NCBI GenBank assembly: GCA_001817495.1
Contig: MHIL01000023.1
Coordinates: forward strand, 1 to 57,335
From: Candidatus Buchananbacteria bacterium RIFCSPHIGHO2_02_FULL_56_16
GTDB lineage: Bacteria > Patescibacteriota > Patescibacteriia > Buchananbacterales > UBA6539
DNA length: 57,335 nucleotides
Direction of reading: 5' to 3'
The notes beneath the pieces are model-generated. The model did no database searches. It was not told the DNA's origin and worked only from the letters and a program-made list of their open reading frames with translations. Numbering within the stretch: position 1 is the stretch's first letter; each line of letters opens with the position of its first letter. Shown here piece by piece: positions 7,904 to 57,335 of the stretch. Made by a program: the position numbers and the translations under genes.

Positions 7904-9739
7904 TCAGTTGTTGCCGTGATACTTTCGTTTCGTGTTGACGTACCAATCTTCAATGTTGTTGAAGCGGTCGGCGGGGAGAATAATTCGATGGACGTCGAGC
8001 CCTTTAATTTTTTGATCGGCGACGTAGGTGTAGGTCGGGTTGTAGAGGAAGATGGCCGGCAGGTCGGCAAGGATCGTTTCCTCGAACGTCCGGTACAGCG
8101 GCTGGCGGGCGGCCTCATCGGCGGCTTTGCGCGCATCCTCCAGCGCCTTATCAACGTTGCGGTTGGCGTACAGCGCCAGGTTCAAGCCGGGATCCTGGAC
8201 CTGCGAGGAGTGCCAGAACGGGAAGGGGTCGGGATTTGAGCCGACGATGATGCCGAAGAGCAGCGCCTCGTAGCGGCGCGGCTTGATGACGTCGCGGCTG
8301 ATTCGGCCGCCGCTGATGATCTCGAGTTCAACCTTGACGCCGACCGCCCGCCAGAAATCTGAAACCAGTTCCGCTGCCTTGACGTTCTCCGACTGATCGA
8401 CGGTGGTCAGCTTGACAGTTAAAATCTTTTCTCCCTGCTGGCGGTAGAACGCTTGAGTCGGCTCGCCACGCTTCGCGGGCGAAGCGGGCTGGTCGTCACC
8501 GACCAGCTTCGCAGTATCAGTCGTCGTCGCCTGGCTCGCCGTTGTCGCTTCGGTCGTCGTCGCAGTCTCGGTTTGACGGGCGAGCCAGTCAGCGTACTCT
8601 AGGGGCGTGATTTGCTTCCAGCCGGCCTGATCGAGCAGCGCGCTGGCTTGGGTGGGGTCGTAGGCAATCTTTGGCAGATTGTTTCCGGCGTCGGTCGAGC
8701 CCGGCAGGATCGGTCCGTCAATGATTTCACCTTCGAGCTGGAGCGCCTGGGAGAGAATCGCCGGTTTGTCGATCGCCAGCGCCAGCGCCTGGCGGACGTC
8801 TTTGGTGGCGAGCGACTCGTTCTCTTTTTGGTTGAAAAAAACCGCGGTGTACTGGGGGAGTGCGAGCGAGTACTGGTTGAGGTTCTTGAGTCCCGCCAGG
8901 TCTTTCTTGAGATCTTTGGGCAGAAAGCTCAAGCCCTCGATTGAATTATTTTTTAAGGCTTGGATGCCGGTTTGAAAATCGGGGTAAAACTTGAAGGTGA
9001 GTTTTTCGAGAAAGGGTTTGGATCCGTAGTAGTACGGGTTAGGTACCAGGGTGTACGATCTGATGTTACCGAGCCGGTCTTTGGTCAGCGACTTAAATTG
9101 CCAGGGTCCGGCGCCGACTGGCCGGAGGTTATACTCGGTCAGGTTGGCGTTGACCGGCGGAATTTCACCCCAGATATGTTCAGGCAACAAGCCGAAGGTC
9201 ATCACCTCCAAAAAATCGGGGTACGCTTCCGGCAGGCTGAAGCTGACCGTCCGGTCGTCAATTTTCTTAACCTCGACGCCCCGCAGGCTCACCAGGAGCG
9301 GACTCTTGAAGTCGGGGTCCTGGATGCTCTTGACCGTGAACACGACATCGTCGGCGGTGAGGGGCTGGCCATCGTGCCAGCGCAGGTTTTCCCGCAAGAC
9401 GAAGGTGTAGGTCGTCTGAGCTTCATCAATTTCCCAGCGCTCGGCCAGGTCCGGCGCGAGCTCGAGGCTCTTATCGTAGGCGACCAGACCCGAGAAGATG
9501 AGCCGGGCGAGGTCCGAATCAACGTCGTTGGTTTGCGAGAGGAGGGGATTGGCGTACTGCGGCGCGCCGATCAACCCTTCGGTGTACTCGCCGCCGGCGA
9601 CCGGCACGGGAATAAAGTTCTGCAGGTAGAAGCTACCGGCGATAAAAATCAACGAGCCGACCAGCGCCGCCATCGCTCCTCGAAACAGCCGCCGTTCCTT
9701 GGTTGAGAGGACTTTGGGCAGATGCTTGAGTTGCCGCAA
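7904..9739 (-). CDS. Membrane-anchored ABC-transporter family-5 (peptide/nickel, OppA/DppA-like) solute-binding protein; start codon uncertain
   Basis: It has an N-terminal TM anchor followed by a typical SBP_bac_5 layout (..LRWHDGQPLTADDVVFT.., ..NPYYYG.KP.L..). No permease or ATPase gene is adjacent. Confidence 0.75.
   Translation of the reverse strand: MRQLKHLPKVLSTKERRLFRGAMAALVGSLIFIAGSFYLQNFIPVPVAGGEYTEGLIGAPQYANPLLSQTNDVDSDLARLIFSGLVAYDKSLELAPDLAERWEIDEAQTTYTFVLRENLRWHDGQPLTADDVVFTVKSIQDPDFKSPLLVSLRGVEVKKIDDRTVSFSLPEAYPDFLEVMTFGLLPEHIWGEIPPVNANLTEYNLRPVGAGPWQFKSLTKDRLGNIRSYTLVPNPYYYGSKPFLEKLTFKFYPDFQTGIQALKNNSIEGLSFLPKDLKKDLAGLKNLNQYSLALPQYTAVFFNQKENESLATKDVRQALALAIDKPAILSQALQLEGEIIDGPILPGSTDAGNNLPKIAYDPTQASALLDQAGWKQITPLEYADWLARQTETATTTEATTASQATTTDTAKLVGDDQPASPAKRGEPTQAFYRQQGEKILTVKLTTVDQSENVKAAELVSDFWRAVGVKVELEIISGGRISRDVIKPRRYEALLFGIIVGSNPDPFPFWHSSQVQDPGLNLALYANRNVDKALEDARKAADEAARQPLYRTFEETILADLPAIFLYNPTYTYVADQKIKGLDVHRIILPADRFNNIEDWYVNTKRKYHGNN
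8460..8489. repeat. 30-nt in-frame palindromic element (copy in the solute-binding protein gene)
   Basis: The sequence is ggctcgccacgcttcg-cggg-cgaagcgggc, read as [10 protein letters not shown] inside a Thr/Ala-rich insertion. Confidence 0.85.
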
Positions 9740-10149: not shown

Positions 10150-10209
10150 ACAAGGATGATTACAGGATAGCAAAAAAAAGCTCCGCTGTCAACTCTGTGT
10201 ATTCCCTCC

Positions 10210-16296: not shown

Positions 16297-16352
16297 GGGT
16301 AGGTTGGAGCCTCTGCTCCAACCGAGCCGAGAGCAGAGGCTCTCGGCTACCC
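16297..16352. repeat. Y-shaped two-hairpin element upstream of leuS
   Basis: The outer stem gggtag/ctaccc encloses gttggagc-ctct-gctccaac and ccgagagc-agag-gctctcgg. The second hairpin is shared with 5557-5579. Confidence 0.55.
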
Positions 16353-16382
16353 GTCTGTAGGTACAATCCATCAAACGTATAT

Positions 16383-23224: not shown

Positions 23225-26200
23225 ATGATACACCAAGTACACCAAGACAAGCAGCGCGAGGCAAACCGCAGGAGCCGGCCGGTGGCGAGGTTCATCCTGT
23301 CGGGTTGCATGTTGCTGACGCTGGCGCTGGGCTTGGTCGCGCCGGCAATGCTCTACCCGACCCCGGCGGCCGCGGCCGGCATACCGACCTTTGACGCCGC
23401 GAACCTTCGAGCGTGGTTTAGCCAAATCGGCTATAACTTCGCTGAACAAGCTGAACGTCTAGCACAGCAGATCGAGAAGCGGACGGCGGCGATTGCTTTC
23501 AAATCAGCCTTACATTTATTCCTCAACAACCTTGCTTACGATTCGGCGACCTGGCTGGCCGCCGGCGGCAAGGGCCAGACCCCGTACTTTCATACTGATA
23601 GCTGGGGAGCGTACCTGACCAAGGCCGCTGACGGCGCGGCCGGTGATTTTATCAGCAAACTCGGTGAATCGTGGCTTGACGGCTTCAACGTCTGCCAGCC
23701 GGATCTGCCGTTTCGGATTAACGTGGCTCAAGGGTTTCAAGACAATTTTATCCGTCGCCAGCCCGACTGTACCGCCAGCGAACTGGCCCGAGACTGGGAG
23801 CGCTTCGTCCAGCGCGACGACTTTCTTAGCCAGTTCGTCAAGCAATTCAATTCGCAGCAGAACGAGGTTCTCATCGGCTTGACGCTTTGGGACAAGTACT
23901 ATCAAGCCCTCTCGTTTGAAACCAAGACTAAAGAGCAGGATCGAATCGAAGGCCAGGGTTTCCAGCCGGTTACGTCGGCGATATCCGGCAAGATTCTTAC
24001 CCCCGCCAGCCTGACCAAAGCCCAGGCGGATGCCTTGATTAACAATCAGGCCGACGCCGAGAAAATCAGCACCGGCGACATCGTGGCTGACGCCATCAGC
24101 ACGTTTATTAATACCTTAGCCGGCAAGCTGTTTCAGCGGCTGTTCAAGGAAGGACTGGCGAGCCTGCGGGATGATGATGATGCTCGGCGAAGTTTCATTA
24201 GCCGTGATCTCTATACCGGTGAGAGCGGCCGCGACCTGTTCACCGGCCGGCAGGCGGCCGAGGCGCGCTACGTAACGCTGGTTGACGCCGGCATCATTAC
24301 CGGCGGGCCGTACGAACTTTTGCAGCAGCTCGCCACCTGCCGGGATTTGAGCAACCCGGGCCCGGAAGAGTGCGTCATTGACCAAAATTTTCGTTTGGCG
24401 ATTGAGCAAGAGATGACGGTTCGGGAGGCGATTGACGCCGGCTACCTGGACGGCAGCGCGCCGTTCGGCTTTATTTCCCCGGGGGTTGCGCCGCCCTACG
24501 CCGGGGACAAGAAGGGCTACCCCTACCGCAGCCTGCTGATTCTGCGGGCCCACCGGATCATCCCGGTTACTTGGGAGGTGGCCGCTAAAATTATTGATGA
24601 GGGATTTACCGGCAGCGACCGGGTCGTGACGCTGAATGCCTTGATTGCCGAGTATGATAACTCGGACAGCCCCTTCTACCGCCTGATTGACCAATACTGG
24701 GTGCTGAAAGCGCCGGAAGCGTTCTGCAAGGCGGAAGGCTACGGGCCGGTCATCATCAGCGATCAGGTCAGCAACGACGGCCAGCGGATCGTGACGCGCA
24801 GCCAGTACTGCGCCGACTACCAGTCGTGCATTGAGAAAGACAGCAAGGGCAAGTGCATCTACGGCTACTGCACCGAGGAACAGCCAACCTGGAACCTCCA
24901 GGCCGAGAGCTGCCTGCCCGAGTACAGCACCTGCCAGACTTTCGTGAACGGCGGCGGCCAGACGGTTTCCTACCTCCAGAATACCCTTAACTACAACAGC
25001 TGCAGCGCGGACAACGCCGGCTGCCAGTGGTACTGCCAGTCGTACAATGTTCCGAGCGCCACCTGGGCTTGCGTTAATGCCGGCGAGCAGGTGCTGAAAC
25101 CGTGCGCCGCGCCCAGCGGCTGCCCGCTCAACGCCGGCTGCAGCATCGCTGAAGCCGGGACATTCTGCACCGACGCGGTCAGTGGCGCGAACCTGACCAT
25201 CAGCACCGCCTGCAGCCCCAGCACCCAGTGGTGGCAAGCCGATCTCTTCGGAACGGGTGTCGGCGGCTGCCAGGCCGGCGCCAGCTGCACCGTCGAGTAC
25301 CAGGGAGTTCAGTGCGTCCAGACCGGCTGCGAGAGCCGCCAGAACCTGCTGCCCAACCCCGGCTTTGAAACCGCCGCCCCGGCCGGCACCCTGGCCGCGA
25401 AGTGGGGCGGGGATCCGGCCTACTTCGAACGGGTGAGCGGCGGGCAGGAGCGGATCCACCGCGGCCGCAGCAGCGTGCGCTTCTACAATGCCGGCAGTAT
25501 GGCCGGCGTAACGATGCGGTCCGATGAGCTGACCGTACCCCGCGCCGGCGCCTACACCGTGAGCGGCTACGTCTTTGACCGGCTGAATGTCGGGTCAATC
25601 TCGTTCAGCGTTTTGGTAAACGGCGGCGCCGTGGCTGACCCGCCGGTCATGCTGACCCAAACCGCCAAGAATCGCTGGTACCAGGTGAGCTTTGATACGC
25701 CGGCGCTGAACGCGAACGACAGGATCAAGATCGTGGTAATCGTCGCCGGCGAGCAGGTCAGCGGCCTGGCCTGGTTCGACGACTTCAGCCTGACCGAGAG
25801 CTGCCTGGTCAATCCGGTGACCCTGACGCTGGCCGGCGCCATCGCCGAAGATGAGAGCAAGATCCACTTCGACCGCGACGCGAAGCAGTGCAGCGCCGAA
25901 GCTGACGGCTGCTCCCAGTTCTACGCTTCGCCGACCCGGCGGATCAGCAACCTCCTGTTTAGCGTTACCGACCCGAGCTTTGAGCTGTACCAAGACAGTA
26001 CCACCCAGCCCGGGGATCAGGATTTCAAGAACTGGACTGCCGTCAGAGCCGTTGTTAAAGCCAGCAGCGATGCTCACAGCGGCGGAGCCGCGATGCAGCT
26101 GCGAGACGACAGTGGCGGCGCCGAAACCTATGTTTCGCTCACGTTTGATACGGGCGAGCCGCTCAACGAGCGGATGTTCATTGTTTCCTACTACGCGAAA

Positions 26201-33133: not shown

Positions 33134-33155
33134 TACGAGCAAGAAGAATTTCTTA

Positions 33156-33640
33156 AGTACCCCGTTCTTGGGGTAAGAGGGGGAACTAAGGTTAAAATGA
33201 TCGGGCCCGCTACGCCAACGCGTTAGCGTGGCGAGGGAGTTACGAGAATAGGTCAAAGCCGTAACCCCTTCTAACTTCCCCTTAACGTAAGGGGAAGGAT
33301 ACTTGGGCAGCGCTTTATGCTTATTCGCAGCATTTGCCTTGACAAGAAGAACATCGTAAGCACCCCCCTCTTGGGTTAAGAGGGGGAGCTAAGGTGAGAT
33401 TAAGTGGGCCCGCTACGCCAACGCGTTAGCGTGGCGAGGGAGTTACGAGTAATGCTGAAGCCTGCCCGCGCGCGGCGCGCAGGCGGGCCGTAACCCCTTC
33501 CCCGCCTCGACTCGCCTTCGGTAAAGCCACGGCGAGGCGGGTAACTTCCCCTTAACGTAAGGGGAAGGATACCAGGTAAGAGCTTTATGCTTATCTGCCT
33601 GAGCGTTGCACGCAGACAGGTTCGCAGCATTCGCATGAGT
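33156..33640. repeat. Two tandem copies of a structured intergenic module of about 200-280 nt (candidate ncRNA or MITE pair)
   Basis: Copy 1 is about 33156-33348 and copy 2 about 33357-33640. They share identical blocks of 44 nt (33203-33246 = 33407-33450) and 31 nt (taacttccccttaacgtaaggggaaggatac). Copy 2 differs by three inserted hairpins. Confidence 0.75.
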
Positions 33641-33678
33641 TCGCATCATTAGCATCGCGTATTGAAAAAAAGATTACG

Positions 33679-39719: not shown

Positions 39720-39754
39720 AGGAATTAGGAATTAGGTTGTAGCTTGTAGTTCTT
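39720..39754. repeat. Left arm of the inverted repeat bracketing the four-helix-bundle gene
   Basis: The reverse complement of aggaattaggaattaggttgtagcttgtagttctt matches 40160-40194, apart from a 7-nt indel and one mismatch. Confidence 0.75.
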
Positions 39755-40161: not shown

Positions 40162-40254
40162 GAACTACAACCTAATTCCTAACTCCTAACTCCTAACTCC
40201 TAACTCCTAACTCCTAACTCCTAACTCCTAACTCCTAACTCCTAACTCCTAACT
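40160..40254. repeat. Right arm of the inverted repeat, followed by a (TAACTCC)x10 perfect heptamer microsatellite just upstream of metK
   Basis: The arm is aagaactacaacctaattcc. Ten perfect TAACTCC units span 40180-40249, followed by a partial unit. The metK ATG is at 40259. Confidence 0.9.
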
Positions 40255-40258
40255 AAAC

Positions 40259-41435: not shown

Positions 41436-41477
41436 AGCTTATAGCTTATAGCTTATAGCTTATAGCTGATAGTTGTT
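41436..41477. repeat. (AGCTTAT)x4 heptamer tandem repeat plus two degenerate units (word family 3)
   Basis: agcttat is repeated at 41436, 41443, 41450 and 41457, followed by agctgat and agttgtt. Confidence 0.85.
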
Positions 41478-41568
41478 AGAGGCTGCGGTACTAAAGCAAC
41501 CTTCTATACCCTAAAAGCTAACAGCTAAAAGCTGATCTATGATTTAGTGCTTAGAATTTATCACTGCT

Positions 41569-42870
41569 ATGGCCGCTGATCAGCCAAATAAAAACGACGA
41601 ATTTTTTCAGCTCCTAGCCGCCGAGCCCGGCGGGCCGGGCGGTACCGCTGTCCGGAATCCGTTTAATGATGACGAGATTGTCTTTCGGGATGAACGCGGC
41701 GAAATTAAGGTGCTCAAGGGAAAACAGGTAACGCCGTTAGCTCGGGCCGGCGTCCAGCGGCGGGAATCAACCGGTCCGGCGGTTGAGCCGGCTTCACCGC
41801 CCCCCGAACCGCTTCCGGCAGCGCCGCCGCCAGCGACCGCCGGCCTGCCGTCGCCGAGCGCGTCGATTGCTCAAGCCGCGACGCGTCACCGGCAGGCTAT
41901 TGCCGACACCGTGGAGTCAATCACCGCCAGCCATCAGCTCAAAAAAACTTTTGCCGAAGCAGCGCTCGAGAAACGATTTAAAAATCTAATCCTCTCGATG
42001 CTGACCGGCGTGCGTAACGCCGTCGAGACGAGGGAGATGCTCACCCGGCCAGTGGCGGAAGGCGGCCTGGAATTTAGCCAGCCGGAAGCGGCAGACGTGC
42101 TGGCGGCTATTGATCAAGCGAACCGTTCAATCACCGGTCAGGCTCACCACCAGCCGCCACCGGCGTTGAGCCTTGAAGGTCAGCAGCTGTTGAGCGATAC
42201 CGCCGCACCGGCTCCGCCCACGCTCACCTTCACCGACCCGCTACGCCCGCGTAGCGTGGCGAGCCCGATCCTCACATCGGCTGTCGCTCCGTCATCCTCG
42301 CCGCTGCCGCCGGTTGCCCCGCCAAATCCGATAGCGCCGCCCCGCCCCGTGAAGGCGTTTCAAGAGCCGCCGGCTCCGGTGGTTGCCGTCCGGCCCAGGC
42401 CAGCGGCCGCTGCCGAGACGCCAATTGGTCGTCAGACGGTTCAACCGGCGGAAGGCTCGCCACGCTTCGGCGGCGAAGCGGGCTCGCCACGCTTCGGTGG
42501 CGAAGCGGGCAGACCGAAGATCGAGGATGTAAAGTTTAAGCCAAAATCAATGGGTCCGGTCGAGGAGATTGGCGCGCTCACGGCGCTCGATTTCCGCCGG
42601 CTCGGCGCCAACCCGAACGAGGCGGGTCTGGCGATTATGGAAAAAATTGAGCAGCTGGAGCAGGAGTCGTTTAGCCAGCGGATCGCGGCGATTAGGGCCT
42701 GGCAGGACAGCCCCGTCTACCGGCTGTACCTCGAGCTCGGCGGCGCGAGCATGGAAGAGAAGAAGCCGGTCGCGACCGTCATCGCCGAACGGCAGGCGGC
42801 GCGCACGCCAACGCTGACCGAACCGGAGTTTGAGGCGATTTCGGATTTAAACCAGAAGCTAAGACATTAG
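41569..42870 (+). CDS. Pro/Ala-rich hypothetical protein (433 aa) carrying three copies of the palindromic element
   Basis: It is a long ORF with a disordered Pro-rich middle and a conserved-looking helical C-terminus. It is bracketed by a perfect 19-bp inverted repeat. Confidence 0.65.
   Translation: MAADQPNKNDEFFQLLAAEPGGPGGTAVRNPFNDDEIVFRDERGEIKVLKGKQVTPLARAGVQRRESTGPAVEPASPPPEPLPAAPPPATAGLPSPSASIAQAATRHRQAIADTVESITASHQLKKTFAEAALEKRFKNLILSMLTGVRNAVETREMLTRPVAEGGLEFSQPEAADVLAAIDQANRSITGQAHHQPPPALSLEGQQLLSDTAAPAPPTLTFTDPLRPRSVASPILTSAVAPSSSPLPPVAPPNPIAPPRPVKAFQEPPAPVVAVRPRPAAAAETPIGRQTVQPAEGSPRFGGEAGSPRFGGEAGRPKIEDVKFKPKSMGPVEEIGALTALDFRRLGANPNEAGLAIMEKIEQLEQESFSQRIAAIRAWQDSPVYRLYLELGGASMEEKKPVATVIAERQAARTPTLTEPEFEAISDLNQKLRH
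42237..42265. repeat. Inverted-orientation copy of the in-frame palindromic element with compensatory stem changes
   Basis: The sequence is cccgctacgcccgcgtagcgtggcgagcc. Its stem is cgctacg/cgtagcg instead of cgcttcg/cgaagcg, and it is read as [10 protein letters not shown]. Confidence 0.8.
42454..42510. repeat. Two tandem copies (27-nt period) of the in-frame palindromic element
   Basis: The sequence is ggctcgccacgcttcg-gcgg-cgaagcgggctcgccacgcttcg-gtgg-cgaagcgggc, read as GSPRFGGEAGSPRFGGEAG. Confidence 0.9.
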
Positions 42871-43094
42871 TTTAGAAATTCTAAGCACTAAATCCTAGAA
42901 CGAGCTGTTAGCTTCATTGAGGAGTTAGGAATTAGCTTTTTAGCTTCCGAGTTGCCGAGACTTACCGTTTCCTCAAAAGCTACAAGCTAAGAAGCTACTT
43001 CCTAAAAATCTAACAGCCGCTAAAAGCTATAAGCTATCTTTGGTCATTTGGATTTATGTAGAGTTGAGAGCTTAGGATTTAGGATTTTGATAAA

Positions 43095-43562
43095 ATGCAG
43101 CAATTCGTCGTCCCCCAATTCATTGACGTTGAAGATAAAATCATCGGTCCGATCACCGTTCGGCAATTTTTGATTTTGCTGGCCGGCGCCGGGGTGTCCT
43201 TTGTCGCCTACAAGCTCTCCGACCTCACCCTCTTTGTCTTTGAGTTCGCGGTCATCTCGCTCATCTTCTTCACCTTCGCGTTCATCAAAATTAACGGCAA
43301 GCCGATTCACTATCTCTTCCTTAACCTCATTCAAACTTCTCGTCGCGCCCGCTTGCGGGTGTGGAAGAAAAAAGTTTTTCATAAGGCCGAGCTGCATAAG
43401 TTGAGTAAAGAAAAAAAAGCCGAGCTGCCGGTGGTGGTTATCGCCAAAAATAAGGTCAAGGCTTCGCGGCTGGCCGAGCTGTCGCTGATCGTTGACACGG
43501 GCGGCATCTACCAGGGCGAGGCGCTCCCGCTGGCTAAGGGCGGCAAGGAGCAGCTGTTATGA
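43095..43562 (+). CDS. PrgI-family (VirB3-like) small T4SS membrane protein
   Basis: It has the N-terminal VPQFIDVEDKIIGPITVRQF motif followed by two TM helices. Its stop overlaps the next start (ATGA). Confidence 0.65.
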   Translation: MQQFVVPQFIDVEDKIIGPITVRQFLILLAGAGVSFVAYKLSDLTLFVFEFAVISLIFFTFAFIKINGKPIHYLFLNLIQTSRRARLRVWKKKVFHKAELHKLSKEKKAELPVVVIAKNKVKASRLAELSLIVDTGGIYQGEALPLAKGGKEQLL

Positions 43563-44238: not shown

Positions 44239-46158
44239 ATGGCGATTACCCCGCGGACAATCAAAGAGCAAGAGCAGCGCCGCTTGTTGCCGCCCGAGGC
44301 GGCAGTCGCGCCGGCCGAGCAGCGCGAGCGCGAGGCGGGAGCGGCGGCGGCGGAAAAATCAGTCATCGAGGAGGAACGAATCTTCCGCGAGGGCGTGGTT
44401 TCGATCAAAGACCTGATCAGCCCGGCCGCGATGGAGGTCAACCCGCGCTTCATTAAGCTCGGCGAGCGGTTCGCGAGCACGCTGTTCGTCATCAGCTATC
44501 CGCGCTACATCTCGATCGGCTGGTTCGCGCCGATCATCAACCTAAGCGTGGCGCTGGACATCTCGATGTTTTTTTATCCGGTGAAATCCCACATCATCTT
44601 AAAGCAGCTGCGGAAGAAAGCCGGCGCGCTGGAAGCCCAGCTGCTCTCGGACCGGGAGAAGGGCGCGCCGCGCGATCCGGTGCGTGAGACGGCGCTGCGC
44701 GATATTGAGAAGCTGCGCGACGACCTCACCCAGGGTACCGAGCACTTTTTTCAGTTCGGCCTGTACGTCACCGTCTACGCCGACACCAAAGAAGAGCTCG
44801 GCCGGCTGACCGAAGACATTGAGTCACTCTTCGGCTCGCGCCTCGTGTACTCCAAGAAGGTGCTCTACCAGGCGGAGCAGGGATTTAACTCCACCCTGCC
44901 GATGGGCAACGATGAGCTGATGATTGGGTTTAACATGAACTCATCGCCGATCGCCGCTTCATTTCCGTTTATTTCCTCCGAACTAACCTCCGACGACGGC
45001 GTGCTCTACGGCATCAACCGGCACAATAACAGTCTGATCCTCTTCGACCGGTTCTCCCTCCAGAACGCCAACACGGTGGTGTTCGCCACCTCCGGCGCCG
45101 GCAAGAGCTACGCGATCAAGCTCGAGGTGCTCCGGAGCATGATGCTGGGCACCGACGTGCTGGTGATTGACCCGGAGCGCGAGTACAAGCACCTCGCCGA
45201 CGCGGTCGGCGGGACCTACATCAACATTTCGTTGAGTTCAGAGAGCAAGATTAACCCCTTCGACCTGCCGCGGCCTATCGGCGAGCAGCGGACATCTGAT
45301 ATCATCCGGGCGTCGGTCATCACGCTCAAGGGTCTGCTGCGTCTGATGCTGGGCAGCCTCACCCACCAGGAGGACTCGATCATTGACCGGGCGCTCCTGG
45401 AAACGTACGCCAAGAAAGACATTACCTCGGAGTCCGATCTCGCCAAGATCGAACCGCCGATCATGCAGGACTTGCAAGACGTGCTCGAGGGTATGGAGGG
45501 CGCGGCTGATTTGGCGCTGCGCCTTAAGAAGTACACCCAGGGGACGTTCTCCGGCCTGTTCAACAGCCCGACCAACGTTGACGTTAATAACCAGCTCGTG
45601 GTCTTTTCGGTCCGCGACCTCGAGGATGAGCTGCGGCCAATCGCCATCTACACGATTGTCACCTACATCTGGAACGTGGTGCGCTCGAAGCTGAAGAAAC
45701 GCCTCCTGATTATTGACGAAGCCTGGTGGCTGATGCAGAATGAAGATTCGGCCAAGTTCATCTACGCGCTGGTCAAGCGCTGCCGCAAGTACTACCTCGG
45801 CGTGACCAACATTACCCAGGACGTCAATGACTTTCTGCTTTCGCCCTACGGCCACGCCATCGTCAATAACTCGGCGCTCCAGCTCTTGATGCGCCAGTCG
45901 CCGGCGGCGATCGACCTCGTCCAGCAAACCTTTTTGCTGACCGAGGGTGAGAAGTACCTCCTCCTCGAGTGCGGGGTGGGCGAGGGGATTTTTTTCGCCG
46001 GCGAGAAGCACGCCGCGATTAAAGTCGTCGCCTCCTATTCGGAAGACCAGCTGATCACGTCTGATCCGCGCCAGCTCCTGGAAATTGAAGAGGCCAAGCG
46101 GGAGTTTGAGCAGCAGCTGCCAAACCAAGAGCCCGCGGCTGAACCAGCCGCTCCCTAG
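44239..46158 (+). CDS. VirB4-like T4SS ATPase
   Basis: It has Walker A (FATSGAGKSY) and Walker B (RLLIIDEAWWLM). It also has the upstream ISP....V.....KLG.....TLF...YPRY...GW pattern typical of VirB4/TraE. Confidence 0.8.
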   Translation: MAITPRTIKEQEQRRLLPPEAAVAPAEQREREAGAAAAEKSVIEEERIFREGVVSIKDLISPAAMEVNPRFIKLGERFASTLFVISYPRYISIGWFAPIINLSVALDISMFFYPVKSHIILKQLRKKAGALEAQLLSDREKGAPRDPVRETALRDIEKLRDDLTQGTEHFFQFGLYVTVYADTKEELGRLTEDIESLFGSRLVYSKKVLYQAEQGFNSTLPMGNDELMIGFNMNSSPIAASFPFISSELTSDDGVLYGINRHNNSLILFDRFSLQNANTVVFATSGAGKSYAIKLEVLRSMMLGTDVLVIDPEREYKHLADAVGGTYINISLSSESKINPFDLPRPIGEQRTSDIIRASVITLKGLLRLMLGSLTHQEDSIIDRALLETYAKKDITSESDLAKIEPPIMQDLQDVLEGMEGAADLALRLKKYTQGTFSGLFNSPTNVDVNNQLVVFSVRDLEDELRPIAIYTIVTYIWNVVRSKLKKRLLIIDEAWWLMQNEDSAKFIYALVKRCRKYYLGVTNITQDVNDFLLSPYGHAIVNNSALQLLMRQSPAAIDLVQQTFLLTEGEKYLLLECGVGEGIFFAGEKHAAIKVVASYSEDQLITSDPRQLLEIEEAKREFEQQLPNQEPAAEPAAP

Positions 46159-50883: not shown

Positions 50884-50910
50884 AGGCAAAATTAACAGCA
50901 GGTAAGCTGG

Positions 50911-50961
50911 TAAGTAAATTAAGTAAAGTAAGTGGATAGGCTCATGGGCTTAATTTACTTA
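50911..50961. terminator. Hairpin (word family 2) between convergent recG and the L,D-transpeptidase gene
   Basis: The 13-bp stem pairs taagtaaattaag (50911-50923) with cttaatttactta (50949-50961). Confidence 0.5.
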
Positions 50962-50987
50962 TCTTGCTTACTTCACTTACCTACTTC

Positions 50988-51848
50988 TCAGCTTATCTCT
51001 ACCTTCGTTCCCACCTGAGCAAACTGGTACAGCCGCTCCATGTTCGGGTAGGCGACGTTGACGCAGCCATGGCTCATCGGCCGGCCGAAATTATTATGCC
51101 AGTAGGCGCCGTGGATGTAGTAGCGCAGGCGCTTCGTTGTGAAGTGGAGGTTCCACTTGGTGTTGGGGTAGTAAAAATCGTAGCCGGTCCCGCCATAGAC
51201 TTTGGTTGGCACTTTGTCGAGGATGCTAAACTCGCCGGTCGGCGTTGGCATTGACCGGACGCCGGTCGAAACGGCGAAGCGATCAAGCAGAACGCCGTTA
51301 AACGAGTAGGCGAGCTCCTGGCCGGCGAGGCTGACGGTAATGAACTTCTCAATCGTCCCCGCGTCAGCCGAGCGCGGGTCATGGCCCTGGTCAATCTCAT
51401 CGCCATCGCTAAACCCGTCGCCGTCGGTATCGGGGTTGAGAAGATCCAAACCTAATCGAATCTCCCAGCTGTCGGCCGCGCCGTCGGCGTCTGAATCAAT
51501 CGCGTTGAGTTTGGTCGGTTCAGCGTGGCGGGGAGAGTAGCCGTGGTAGACTTCCTGGAAGTCGTCAAACCCGTCGCCGTCGGTGTCGGCCTTGAGCGGA
51601 TCGGTGTGGTACAGCGTTAGCTCTACTTGATCATTAAATCCGTCGCCGTCAGTATCGGCAATTGGTTCGGCTTCGCTCAGGGTCGCCTTGGGTACTGTCG
51701 AACTGGCAATTGGTTCGGCGGCTGACGCCTGGAAACCGAAGGCAACAAAAAAGAGCGCGAGCGACGCGCCGAAGAGTTTAAAAAAGATGTTTTTTTTGAA
51801 ACTAGCTTTTTTCATTTTTGTTTTAATTTGTTTTAAGCCGGGCTGCAC
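50988..51848 (-). CDS. L,D-transpeptidase (YkuD domain) with N-terminal thrombospondin-type-3 Ca-binding repeats
   Basis: It has a signal peptide and four D-x-D-x-DG-x-x-D repeats. The catalytic motif is HG......G...SHGCVN. Confidence 0.85.
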   Translation of the reverse strand: MQPGLKQIKTKMKKASFKKNIFFKLFGASLALFFVAFGFQASAAEPIASSTVPKATLSEAEPIADTDGDGFNDQVELTLYHTDPLKADTDGDGFDDFQEVYHGYSPRHAEPTKLNAIDSDADGAADSWEIRLGLDLLNPDTDGDGFSDGDEIDQGHDPRSADAGTIEKFITVSLAGQELAYSFNGVLLDRFAVSTGVRSMPTPTGEFSILDKVPTKVYGGTGYDFYYPNTKWNLHFTTKRLRYYIHGAYWHNNFGRPMSHGCVNVAYPNMERLYQFAQVGTKVEIS

Positions 51849-54832: not shown

Positions 54833-57335
54833 CAGCGAAAGGTTAGGCTGTCGTGCTCGACGTCAATGGTGATGGTGTCGCACGGCTGGCTCAAGACGAC
54901 GTGGGCGATATGATGTTCAATCAAGTTCTGAATGTTTTGGCGGATTGCTCGCGCCCCGCCCTCGGGTAAGTAACTTTGGGCAGCGAGCAGCCGGGCGACC
55001 GCCGGCGTAGTGGTGACGGTCACACCTTGCGCGTTGAGCCGCTCCACGAGCTCGGCGAGCTGGAGTTCGGCGATGGCGGTCAGGTGCTGGCGCTCGAGCG
55101 GCTGAAAGACGACGATACGATCGAGACGGTTTAGAAATTCGACCGGCAGCTGCTGTTTAAGCTGCTTGAGCACCTGCTGTTCGGCGGCGGCAAAGCTATG
55201 GGTAATCTGTCGGTGTTCAGCTGGCGTTTGGGCGTCAAAGCCCAGCGCGGCCTGTTGCCGAAACTGGTCCGAGCCGATGTTCGAGGTCATGATGACAATG
55301 GTATTTTTGAAATTAATTTTTTTGCCGGTAGCGTCGGTCAGGTGGCCGTCTTCGAGGATTTGAAGCAAGAGGTTAAAGATGTGGGGGTGAGCTTTCTCAA
55401 TCTCGTCGAAGAGAACGACCGAGTAGGGCCGGCGCCGGACGAGGTCGGTGAGCTTCGTGCCCTCGCGGTAGCCGACGTAGCCGGCCGGCGCGCCGATCAG
55501 TTTCGAGATGTTGAAGCTCTCGGCGAACTCGGACATGTCAATTCGAACCAGAGCGTCGGGATTGTTAAAGACGGTCGCGGCCAGCACCTTGGCCAGCTCG
55601 GTTTTACCCACCCCGGACGGCCCCAGGAACATGAATGACCCGACCGGACGGTTGCTGCTGGCGATGCCGGCCCGGGCCCGGCGGATGGATTGCGCCACCG
55701 CAGCGAGCGCTTCAGGCTGGCCGATGATTTTTTTAGCCAAAAGCTGCTCGAGCTTGAGCAGGCGGGCTTTTTCCGTCGCCAGCAGGGTGGCGGTGGGCAC
55801 GCCGGTTACGTGGGCGACGATCGCGGCGACGTCGGCCGCGGTTACGACTGCCAGCGGCTTGCGCTGCTTGGCGGTGCGCTGGGCGCGCAGCGCCGTCAGC
55901 TGCTCGGTAAGCGCTTCAGCCTGCTGCTTGTAGTCCAGCGCGCTCGAGAACTCGCCCCGGTGGACCTTGTCGGCTTTTTTATCGGCCAGCACCCCGAGCG
56001 TGTCTTCTATTTTTTTTATCTCCAAAAAGAGCCGGTCGGTTCCCTGCTTGATCTTGATCGCCGAAGCGGCTTCGTCAATCAGGTCAATGGCTTTGTCGGG
56101 CAGGAAGCGGTCGGTGAGGTAGCGCTCGGAGAGCTCCGCCGCCGCGGCGATGGCATCGTCACCGATGGCAACCTGGTGAAACGTTTCGTAGCCGGGCTTG
56201 ATTCCCTGGAGGATTTGAACGGTTTTTTCGACGTCGGGCTGGTTGACGATGATCGGCTGAAACCGCCGCTCGAGCGCCGCGTCAGGCTCAATGTACTTTT
56301 TGTAATCTTCAAGGGTAGTGGCGCCGATGCAGCGGATTTCGCCGCGGGCCAGGGCGGGTTTTAAGATGTTGGCCGCGTCCATCGAGCCGGCGGCCGAGCC
56401 GGCGCCGATGATGTTGTGCAGCTCATCAATGAACAGGATGATCGAGGGGTCGTTTTTGACTTCGAGCAGGATTTGCCGGAGGCGGTTTTCAAACTCGCCG
56501 CGGAAGCTCGTGCCGGCGACCACGGCGCTGATGTCCAGGGCGTAGATCTTTTTGTCGCTCAAAAACTCCGGAACATGGCCTTCCACGATCTGCTTGGCTA
56601 ACCCTTCGGCGATCGCGGTTTTGCCGACCCCGGGATCACCCAGCAGCACCGGGTTGTTTTTGGTCCGGCGGGACAAGATTTGGATCAGCCGTTCAATCTC
56701 CGCCTCGCGGCCGATGACCGGGTCAATCCGTTTCTGGCTGGCACGGTCGGTCAGGTTGGTGGCAAAAAAGTCCAGGCTCAAGGCCGGGGCAGCTTTTGCC
56801 TCCCGGCCAAAGCCCAACACCGGCCGTTCGCGCTCGCCACGCTTCGCGGGCGAAGCGGGCTCGCCAAAGTCGGGCTCGGCGATGGCGCCCAGCAGGTCGG
56901 GGAACTTCGCCGCGCTGTGCAGCGCCGTGAGGACCTGGCGGCGGAGGGTTTCAGCGTCAACGCTGGTGGCGGTCAGGAAGTCGTTGATTTTTTCGTCGTT
57001 CAGCTCGAGCAGCGCCGCCAGCAGGTGCTCGGTGCCGACGTAGCAGTGGCGGTTGTAACTCGCCGCCAGGACCGACTTTTCCAGCAGCTTCTTGCTCGAG
57101 AGGTTGAGCGTCACCTCGGTCAGGCGCGTGCTCGCTACCGCATCATCTTTGATCGTCTGCTTAAACTTGAGCGAGTCAAAGCGCGCCTGGGCCAGAATCG
57201 CCGCGCCGACGCTGCCGCGCTGCTGGGCCAGGCTGTGGAGGATGTGGCGGGGACTGACGCGCTGGTGGCCTAACGAAACCGCCAGGCCGAACGCGTTTTT
57301 GAGCGTCTGCTTGGAGTGGGCGGTGAACTGTTGGA
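54832..57335 (-). CDS. clpC: ClpC-type AAA+ chaperone ATPase, 5'-truncated by the window edge
   Basis: The frame stays open upstream of the ORF-track GTG, and my translation gives a first Clp_N repeat (..[18 protein letters not shown]..). It has two AAA modules (GDPGVGKT and GPSGVGKTE Walker A) and a short M-domain. Confidence 0.9.
56831..56860. repeat. 30-nt in-frame palindromic element (copy in clpC, in the linker between the N-domain and AAA1)
   Basis: The sequence is cgctcgccacgcttcg-cggg-cgaagcgggc, read as [10 protein letters not shown]. Confidence 0.85.

Follow-up and report, generated by a model that had tools for sequence, protein, structure and literature searches.

Repetitive extragenic palindromic (REP)-type repeats are extragenic by definition, and the colonization of genes by palindromes inserted in frame is, to our knowledge, documented almost solely for the far larger Rickettsia palindromic elements (RPEs). 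In fungal mitochondria, the GC clusters and the byps of Magnusiomyces are GC-rich hairpins of 27 to 55 nt, mobile inserts in the genes of a compact, AT-richer genome; byps break the reading frame and are skipped by the ribosome. Here, we describe a GC-rich palindrome that lies in frame within the gene for the chaperone ClpC on a contig of Candidatus Buchananbacteria bacterium RIFCSPHIGHO2_02_FULL_56_16 (MHIL01000023.1; positions 1 to 57,335, the whole of which is called the window below). The palindrome is probably a copy of a dispersed, nonautonomous, REP-like hairpin of the Buchananbacteria that was inserted in frame, filtered by selection, and spread by an enzyme of the HUH or REP-associated tyrosine transposase (RAYT) type. 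Taken by themselves, the parts of this statement differ in strength: that a dispersed repeat was inserted in frame into ClpC is very likely, and the HUH/RAYT-type mechanism is a tentative proposal.

REPs have been characterized as sequences of ~30 nt with an imperfect stem; 5' to the foot of this hairpin lies a conserved GTAG (PMC3479197). RPEs form ten families of ~100 to 150 bp in Rickettsia and encode tens of residues, and the classical MITEs (miniature transposable elements with inverted repeats; Correia, ERIC, RUP, and SPRITE) measure 100 to 400 bp, with terminal inverted repeats, target-site duplications, and a parent insertion sequence (PMC10969869). Literature searches for in-frame palindromic elements in the Patescibacteria, or Candidate Phyla Radiation (CPR), turned up no account of such a repeat.

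A hairpin of nine codons in the ClpC linker

The ClpC gene occupies the minus strand from 54832 to beyond 57335, with seven N-terminal codons beyond the window end, and the element is read here on the antisense strand. The open reading frame (ORF) is 100% identical to an 840-residue protein (P0001) and to the partial protein OGY51144.1 of a Candidatus Buchananbacteria metagenome-assembled genome (MAG). Pfam assigned Clp_N repeats, AAA, AAA_lid_9, AAA_2, and ClpB_D2-small to P0001, giving the two Clp_N repeats and two AAA+ modules that define ClpC. A reading of the letters without database searches (the sequence-only reading) had placed a palindromic element at 56831 to 56860, in the linker between the N-domain and AAA1, and both the hairpin and the domain positions agree with this placement: the stretch at 56831 to 56860 (+), cGCTCGCCA-CGCTTCG-CGGG-CGAAGCG-GGC, is a GC-rich imperfect hairpin, and it falls after the Clp_N repeats and ahead of the first AAA module of the protein. 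The hairpin core (56840 to 56857) is built of two arms, 56840 to 56846 and 56851 to 56857, that are 100% complementary and enclose a 4-nt loop (56847 to 56850). In RNA and DNA folds alike, GCC at 56836 to 56838 pairs in addition with GGC at 56858 to 56860, leaving a bulged A at 56839, so that the whole hairpin comprises a 10-bp stem, one bulged A, and the 4-nt loop. The mRNA strand of ClpC folds to exactly this hairpin (RNA fold, -22.7 kcal/mol; z = -2.4). Because the 18-nt core, with at most three mismatches allowed, matches the two strands of the window 12 times where 0.30 matches are expected, a number reached by 0 of 100 shuffles, the palindrome is real and not a chance arrangement.

The repeated unit measures 27 nt (56833 to 56859, +), is codon-aligned on the coding (minus) strand, and encodes P166 to E174 of P0001, PASPAKRGE. 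Its ends were inferred from the invariant block in the alignment of copies, together with the 27-nt period of a tandem pair, an empty site in a second gene, and a nested copy on a related contig, all described below. A 21-residue segment had been attributed to the element; only these nine residues are encoded by it, and the remainder is native linker. The observation that the sequence following the element restarts its first arm held, since CTCGCCA, the first 7 nt of the unit (56833 to 56839), occurs again as a direct repeat at 56860 to 56866 (+). With the preceding G, this junction repeat is 8 nt long (G+CTCGCCA), compared with an identity of 0 to 4 nt at the junctions of other copies (flanks compared by eye), and its geometry is that of the boundary between the tandem copies in gene C (see below). 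The repeat may be a native target whose likeness to the 5' end of the element drew the insertion there, or else what is left of a second tandem copy.

The structural context of the copy was assessed by alignment and modeling. ClpC of Bacillus subtilis (3J3S) aligned to residues 6 to 147 and 191 to 319 of the host protein, leaving residues 148 to 190 unaligned versus a linker of 15 residues there; the host protein was also aligned to ClpC1 of Mycobacterium tuberculosis (8A8U). In an AlphaFold2 model with a mean predicted local distance difference test (pLDDT) score of 83.5, residues 149 to 189 had a pLDDT below 50 and no secondary structure. According to this model, the ClpC copy sits in a permissive linker, predicted to be disordered, between the N-domain and AAA1. 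The linker differs in length and sequence across 118 CPR orthologues of ClpC; uniformity in both, which would have spoken against an insertion, was not seen in this comparison. The linker in the window is ~9 to 12 residues longer than those of the closest insert-free relatives (62% identical), consistent with an insertion of 27 nt. Among ~300 homologues retrieved, the ClpC copy is lineage specific: element-encoded peptides were absent from other ClpC proteins, save for near-identical strains and one 89%-identical relative, an N-terminal fragment (P0185) bearing the identical PASPAKRGE. Every member of the 90% ClpC cluster that reaches the linker carries the insert, and the ClpC insertion appears to be fixed. 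The read-derived members of this cluster stem from runs SRR3989338 and SRR3989344, which are probably also the source of P0185 and of the gene A homologue P0129 (see below).

Copies in the window form a DNA-level repeat

Pattern, nhmmer, and covariance-model searches of the 57-kb window returned eight copies of the element, six of them within long ORFs that Pfam matches or orthologues support. They share the consensus CTCGCCACGCTWCG-NNNN-CGWAGCGGG, an invariant alignment block of 27 nt, or nine codons, with no stop codon in any of the six frames. Gene A (3373 to 5418, -), which encodes a membrane domain and TPR repeats, has a copy at 4888 to 4914 (+) that is read as PASPTKRGE. Gene B (7904 to 9739, -), for a solute-binding protein of the SBP_bac_5 family, has one at 8462 to 8488 (+), read as PASPAKRGE in a variable, low-complexity segment. 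Gene C (41569 to 42870, +) contains three: a copy of the CGCTACG/CGTAGCG subtype at 42237 to 42263 (-), read as PLRPRSVAS, and a head-to-tail dimer whose first (42456 to 42482, +; loop GCGG) and second (42483 to 42509, +; loop GTGG) copies are both read as GSPRFGGEA. Two diverged copies, identical to each other and with a longer stem (CTCGCCACGCTAACGCGTTGGCGTAGCGGGC; 25.8 bits), are intergenic and untranslated, at 33205 to 33237 (-) and 33408 to 33440 (-), 203 nt apart in a duplicated multihairpin block. Since the coding copies use three frames (PASPAKRGE-type three times, GSPRFGGEA twice, and PLRPRSVAS once) and the two intergenic copies are not translated, the repeat is a feature of the DNA and not a protein motif.

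This pattern bears directly on the idea that PASPAKRGE is a selected linker peptide of ClpC, serving as an adaptor, protease, or modification site, with the palindrome incidental to it. Three proteins of the window and several from related genomes do use this frame, as a peptide motif would predict, but three further frames of these nucleotides are translated elsewhere, and copies also lie between genes, which effectively refutes a motif. Nucleotide identity is moreover near 100%, synonymous positions included, and the peptide is missing from ClpC homologues outside the lineage. We regard a selected peptide as very improbable.

Among the six canonical window copies, the loops vary at 6 of 24 positions and the stems show two paired changes; a covariance-model search with filters off detected no decayed copies. 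A known RNA family was rejected, as Rfam at the gathering threshold reported only three tRNAs in the window and the intergenic copies, scanned by E-value, had no match.

Two of the regions that hold copies are themselves rich in repeats. The intergenic block lies between a 3302-aa and a 1583-aa ORF, where positions 33134 to 33678 consist of two tandem units of ~203 nt, each bearing several GC-rich hairpins (ccttccccttacgttaaggggaag; ccccctcttaacccaagagggggg) along with a diverged element copy. Gene C, a proline-rich protein with three copies, is bracketed by a 24-nt inverted repeat (41536 to 41559 and 42876 to 42899; 96% complementary), and AGCTTAT heptamer repeats are found nearby at 41436 to 41470.

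An empty site and nested copies indicate insertion of a discrete unit

Orthologues of gene A provided the clearest view of an uninvaded site. The nine residues encoded by the unit, and exactly these, are absent from each of the 13 orthologues (89% to 47% identity): the closest (P0129, 89%) reads ...YLRWRDP-PADRRWQW... where the window protein reads ...YLRWRDP-PASPTKRGE-PANRRWQW..., and twelve others (P0130 to P0141, 72 to 47%) likewise lack them. In a 72% relative, the site is empty in the DNA, too. On these alignments, the gene A copy is a directly demonstrated in-frame insertion of 27 nt. The ClpC site had been put forward as the cleanest test of in-frame colonization, but gene A serves better: the ClpC linker is hypervariable throughout the CPR orthologues, and no insert-free orthologue is closer than 62% identity. 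If P0185 and the empty gene A homologue belong to one organism, the ClpC insertion would be older than that in gene A. The proposal that a foreign palindromic element colonized ClpC in frame is upheld by the seven other copies in the window, by the insertion in gene A, and by the absence of the peptide from the ~300 other homologues.

The integrity of the unit is apparent from two arrangements. The gene C dimer repeats head to tail with a period of 27 nt, and in the PheT gene of a related contig (L072:4420-4480), the 4-nt loop of an older copy is split by a 27-nt copy, GGCTCGCCgCGCTTCG-[27 nt]-GTGG-CGAAGCGGGC, both being translated (as GPLRHPASLPKRGERSAASR). Together, the dimer and the nested copy argue for a discrete mobile unit of 27 nt. 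The only inverted pair of copies is found in gene C, 188 nt apart; otherwise copies are singletons, the head-to-tail dimer, or nested. No consistent target-site duplication was seen in flanks compared by eye; all that they share is a G preceding the unit and a C or T following it.

Spread that needs no transposase of its own, through templated repair, gene conversion, or replication template switching between short homologies, was considered in the light of these junctions, with the ClpC repeat as microhomology. The 8 nt at the ClpC junction (G+CTCGCCA) match the start of the element, the gene C tandem dimer has the same geometry, GGC is often common to the junctions (by eye), and no transposase is tied to the 27-mer family. 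Most junctions, however, share only 0 to 4 nt, and the nested PheT copy and the copy at 42237 to 42263 share 0 to 1 nt. The insert is always exactly 27 nt long with sharp ends, and the copies form discrete subtypes in different genomes, a pattern that suits a defined unit excised and inserted by an enzyme better than it suits microhomology. Spread of this kind is unlikely in our judgment. An assembly or sequencing artefact would be a more trivial source of the palindrome, and some short metagenome contigs do end or switch partner at the repeat (L069). The ClpC sequence nevertheless recurs unchanged in assemblies made independently at NCBI and ENA, as well as in proteins derived from reads, and the reading frame is intact at every coding copy, so that an artefact has a negligible probability. 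An apparent difference of 86 nt between the window and a further scaffold (L084) proved to be a run of N in the latter.

Copies in related genomes and beyond

Genomes and metagenomes were scanned with an exact pattern of 22 to 24 bases. With one genome per species, the genome scan gave 13 loci, nine of them in another Buchananbacteria genome (46% GC), where the hairpin sits within AT-rich intergenic heptamer-repeat hairpins; the metagenome scan gave 76 copies at 69 loci. Related Buchananbacteria contigs of 42 to 57% GC added more than 10 in-frame copies. These include copies between the B3_4 and B5 domains of PheT, in the C-terminal tail of PNPase, and in the tail of ribosomal protein L17; two in a UvrD/PD-(D/E)XK helicase-nuclease; and others in ValS, MetG, Dcd, and a cupredoxin. 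Most of the copies on related contigs fall between or after Pfam domains, and a few appear as extra length inside a domain match. Frame use was skewed, with 18 of 22 copies in two frames rich in Gly, Pro, Ser, and charged residues (chi-square P = 2e-4); this skew could stem from selection on the peptide, from the G^C target together with codon usage, or from both.

Outside these contigs, L053 (4414 to 5730), L027, and ~25 other contigs of 63 to 69% GC carry a subtype with a T.T mismatch, CGCTTCG/CGTAGCG, as one module of a larger hairpin mosaic resembling bacterial interspersed mosaic elements (BIMEs), with one copy in frame in an alanine racemase. These contigs had no match in a plasmid collection. 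A similar copy lies in a TonB protein on a contig of 43% GC (L039:640-1407), and a viral contig (L089:1186-1656; IMG/VR UViG_3300009285_009708) has the in-frame peptide GSPRFAGVAG in a small Cys-rich ORF; this contig could be a vehicle for horizontal spread. Record titles that name non-Patescibacteria may reflect mis-binning of MAGs. Near-identical copies in the viral contig, the alanine racemase contigs of 63 to 69% GC, and the TonB contig hint at spread across phyla. A broader and more speculative reading, which we would not yet favor, is that the unit is the smallest gene-adapted mobile element. In gene-dense CPR genomes, where intergenic space is scarce, it would persist by in-frame insertion into the linkers of essential proteins (ClpC, aminoacyl-tRNA synthetases, PNPase, and helicases), and a RAYT-like enzyme may carry it across phyla, among CPR episymbionts, their phages, and their hosts.

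The same 26 nt are kept in genomes of 42 to 69% GC, and this conservation raises the question of whether the hairpin is instead a functional cis-element, be it a site bound by a DNA- or RNA-binding protein, a terminator module, a signal for RNase processing or for stability, or an interdomain translational pause; its place in ClpC would then be owed to function and not to parasitism. The constancy across so wide a GC range would suit such a function, as would the near-invariant stems and tail alongside variable loops, the lack of decayed copies, the terminator-like T-rich tracts that follow some copies in AT-rich relatives, and the many coding copies located exactly at domain boundaries. Placement at domain boundaries is equally expected from purifying selection on random insertions, however, and the copies vary in both orientation and setting: the genes that hold them are unrelated, tails and domain interiors are both used, and no position relative to gene starts or ends is held in common. 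The gene A orthologues all do without the element, and it matches no Rfam family. A functional cis-element is unlikely, if the least improbable of the alternatives that we considered.

A candidate mobilizing enzyme and its limits

A search for Y1 transposases, using IS608 TnpA and Escherichia coli RAYT queries (checked against the PDB), covered 756 kb of collected DNA. One Y1 transposase was found, on contig Ga0155437_134 (L072:5757-6416, -), between pheS and pheT; it scored 98.9 bits on NCBIfam NF047646 (equivalog cutoff, 80) and matched Pfam Y1_Tnp. Judged by its sequence, it is a genuine RAYT. This RAYT is itself invaded in frame by GTAG-type REPs, with repeated RQEQRLLSTH and HEGSSEPPLRDG between the HUH motif and the catalytic tyrosine, and the nearest copies of the 27-mer lie 1.3 and 2.3 kb away. 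The window contains GTAG-type REPs of the same family, as intergenic doublets at 5561 to 5618 and 16297 to 16355 (for example, GGGTAG-GTTGGAGCCTCTGCTCCAAC...GAGAGCAGAGGCTCTC-GGCTACCC); this family is distinct from the ClpC element. To the extent that these loci can be read from their sequence, the Buchananbacteria lineage clearly runs a REP-RAYT system.

From these observations, we propose the following mechanism. The hairpin, folded as single-stranded DNA, would be copied and pasted into a minimal G^C/T site, with no duplication of the target, and the likely catalyst would be an HUH/Y1 tyrosine transposase acting in trans, of either the RAYT or the IS200/IS605 type. Being nine codons long and free of stops, a unit that sits in a gene would be transcribed and translated and would add nine residues to the product. 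Copies landing in essential structure would be purged by selection; this would account for the copies seen to date, most of which lie between domains, in tails, or in variable segments.

Several points weigh against an inserted, enzyme-driven mobile hairpin. At ClpC, there is no alignable empty site, because the linker is hypervariable; in the nearest insert-free orthologue, 62% identical, it is unalignable. Presence/absence polymorphism was not seen at any copy, as all copies are present in the five other assemblies, which are at least 99.8% identical; strain variability at the ClpC site, raised by the sequence-only reading, thus found no counterpart among the assemblies compared. In gene A, the 89%-identical P0129 is a read-derived protein without DNA and has other oddities, so that the empty state is carried mainly by the concordant distant orthologues. 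The near-invariant stems and the absence of decayed copies are also compatible with a selected function. Covariation was uninformative, with a single compensatory pair type that performed no better than shuffles in an alignment biased by the exact-pattern searches. As for the enzyme, no transposase is encoded in the window, the canonical 27-mer is without GTAG, and the RAYT on L072 is flanked by another REP family, of the GTAG type (AGAGCAGAGGCTCTCGTCTACCCACC). Because the known RAYT is flanked by this different family, the enzyme that would mobilize the 27-mer is proposed here by inference.

Other repeats and genes of the window

The window has further repeats that are distinct in composition from the 27-mer. 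Inverted repeats of 38 nt at 39720 to 39757/40150 to 40187 and 40172 to 40255, made of heptamers (AGGAATT... / CTAACTC, ~ten times), flank a small gene within a GC dip (46%). This small gene is 73% identical in DNA to a PF05635 (23S_rRNA_IVP/Avd-like) gene upstream of peptidase M48-ClpC past the window end; the Avd-like (PF05635) gene near ClpC lies just past that end, and its paralogue is at ~39.8 to 40.15 kb. A diversity-generating retroelement was rejected: a neighboring 388-aa ORF is MetK and not a reverse transcriptase, and no template repeat/variable repeat (TR/VR) pair was found. A long AT-rich intergenic hairpin with heptamers of the GTAAG/CTTAC type is 84% conserved between the window (50902 to 50989) and the RAYT contig (L072:8035-8121). 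Such AT-rich heptamer hairpins may be terminators or RNase III sites.

Positions 23225 to 46158 hold a type IV secretion-like cluster typical of the CPR, with the 3302-aa ORF, the 1583-aa ORF (which has a weak TrbL/VirB6 match), PrgI (43095 to 43562), and a TraG/VirB4-type ATPase (44239 to 46158). At ~10193 to 10201, the window differs from a 99.9%-identical contig (L085) by an intergenic indel of ~30 nt, where L085 has an extra CAGTTAAACACTCTGGTATTCCCTCTG-like segment with a short duplication.

Significance and comparison with known systems

If the nine-codon CPR version holds true, it would show that reduced and gene-dense genomes select for repeats that are able to pass through the ribosome. 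The copies would then mark, as a map drawn by nature, where essential proteins tolerate insertions, and the unit would offer a very small substrate for studies of hairpin-guided (HUH) DNA transposition. In practical terms, the repeats break metagenome assemblies, and lineage-specific indels of nine residues can mislead the alignment of marker genes and phylogeny.

Compared with the frame-breaking byps, the 27-mer is a multiple of three in length and stop-free, so that no bypass is needed or indicated; translational bypass was rejected on account of this 3n length and of the lack of stops in the frames used. Its resemblance to classical MITEs lies in being nonautonomous, structured, dispersed, and occasionally intragenic. 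It shows none of their size, terminal inverted repeats, target-site duplications, and descent from a parent insertion sequence, being a single hairpin with inconsistent identity at its junctions (0 to 4 nt, and 8 nt at ClpC).

The architecture of the unit is closest to that of the REPs and the REP doublet-forming hairpins (REPINs) with their RAYTs (PMC3116915, PMC3479197): ~30 nt, a GC-rich imperfect palindrome with an unpaired stem base, a loop that varies, and a short tail, 5' of the hairpin foot, that is conserved. Like REPs, which are imperfect palindromes of ~20 to 40 nt, it is dispersed in multiple copies, lacks terminal inverted repeats and consistent target duplications, and coexists in one genome with other hairpin families; its lineage has a RAYT. 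In contrast to REPs, it has CTC 5' of the hairpin foot, and GTAG is confined to the stems of the CGTAGCG subtypes; six of its eight window copies are intragenic, whereas REPs are extragenic; and the RAYT that was found is flanked by another family. Unlike REPINs, it does not form inverted doublets. Its behavior, on the other hand, recalls the Rickettsia RPEs (PMC10969869), which are likewise palindromic, inserted in frame in unrelated housekeeping genes, translated, compatible with function, and also intergenic. The 27-mer adds only nine residues, is borne by the CPR, and is probably unrelated to the RPEs in sequence. The element is built like a REP and behaves like an RPE, and it fits the definition of neither.

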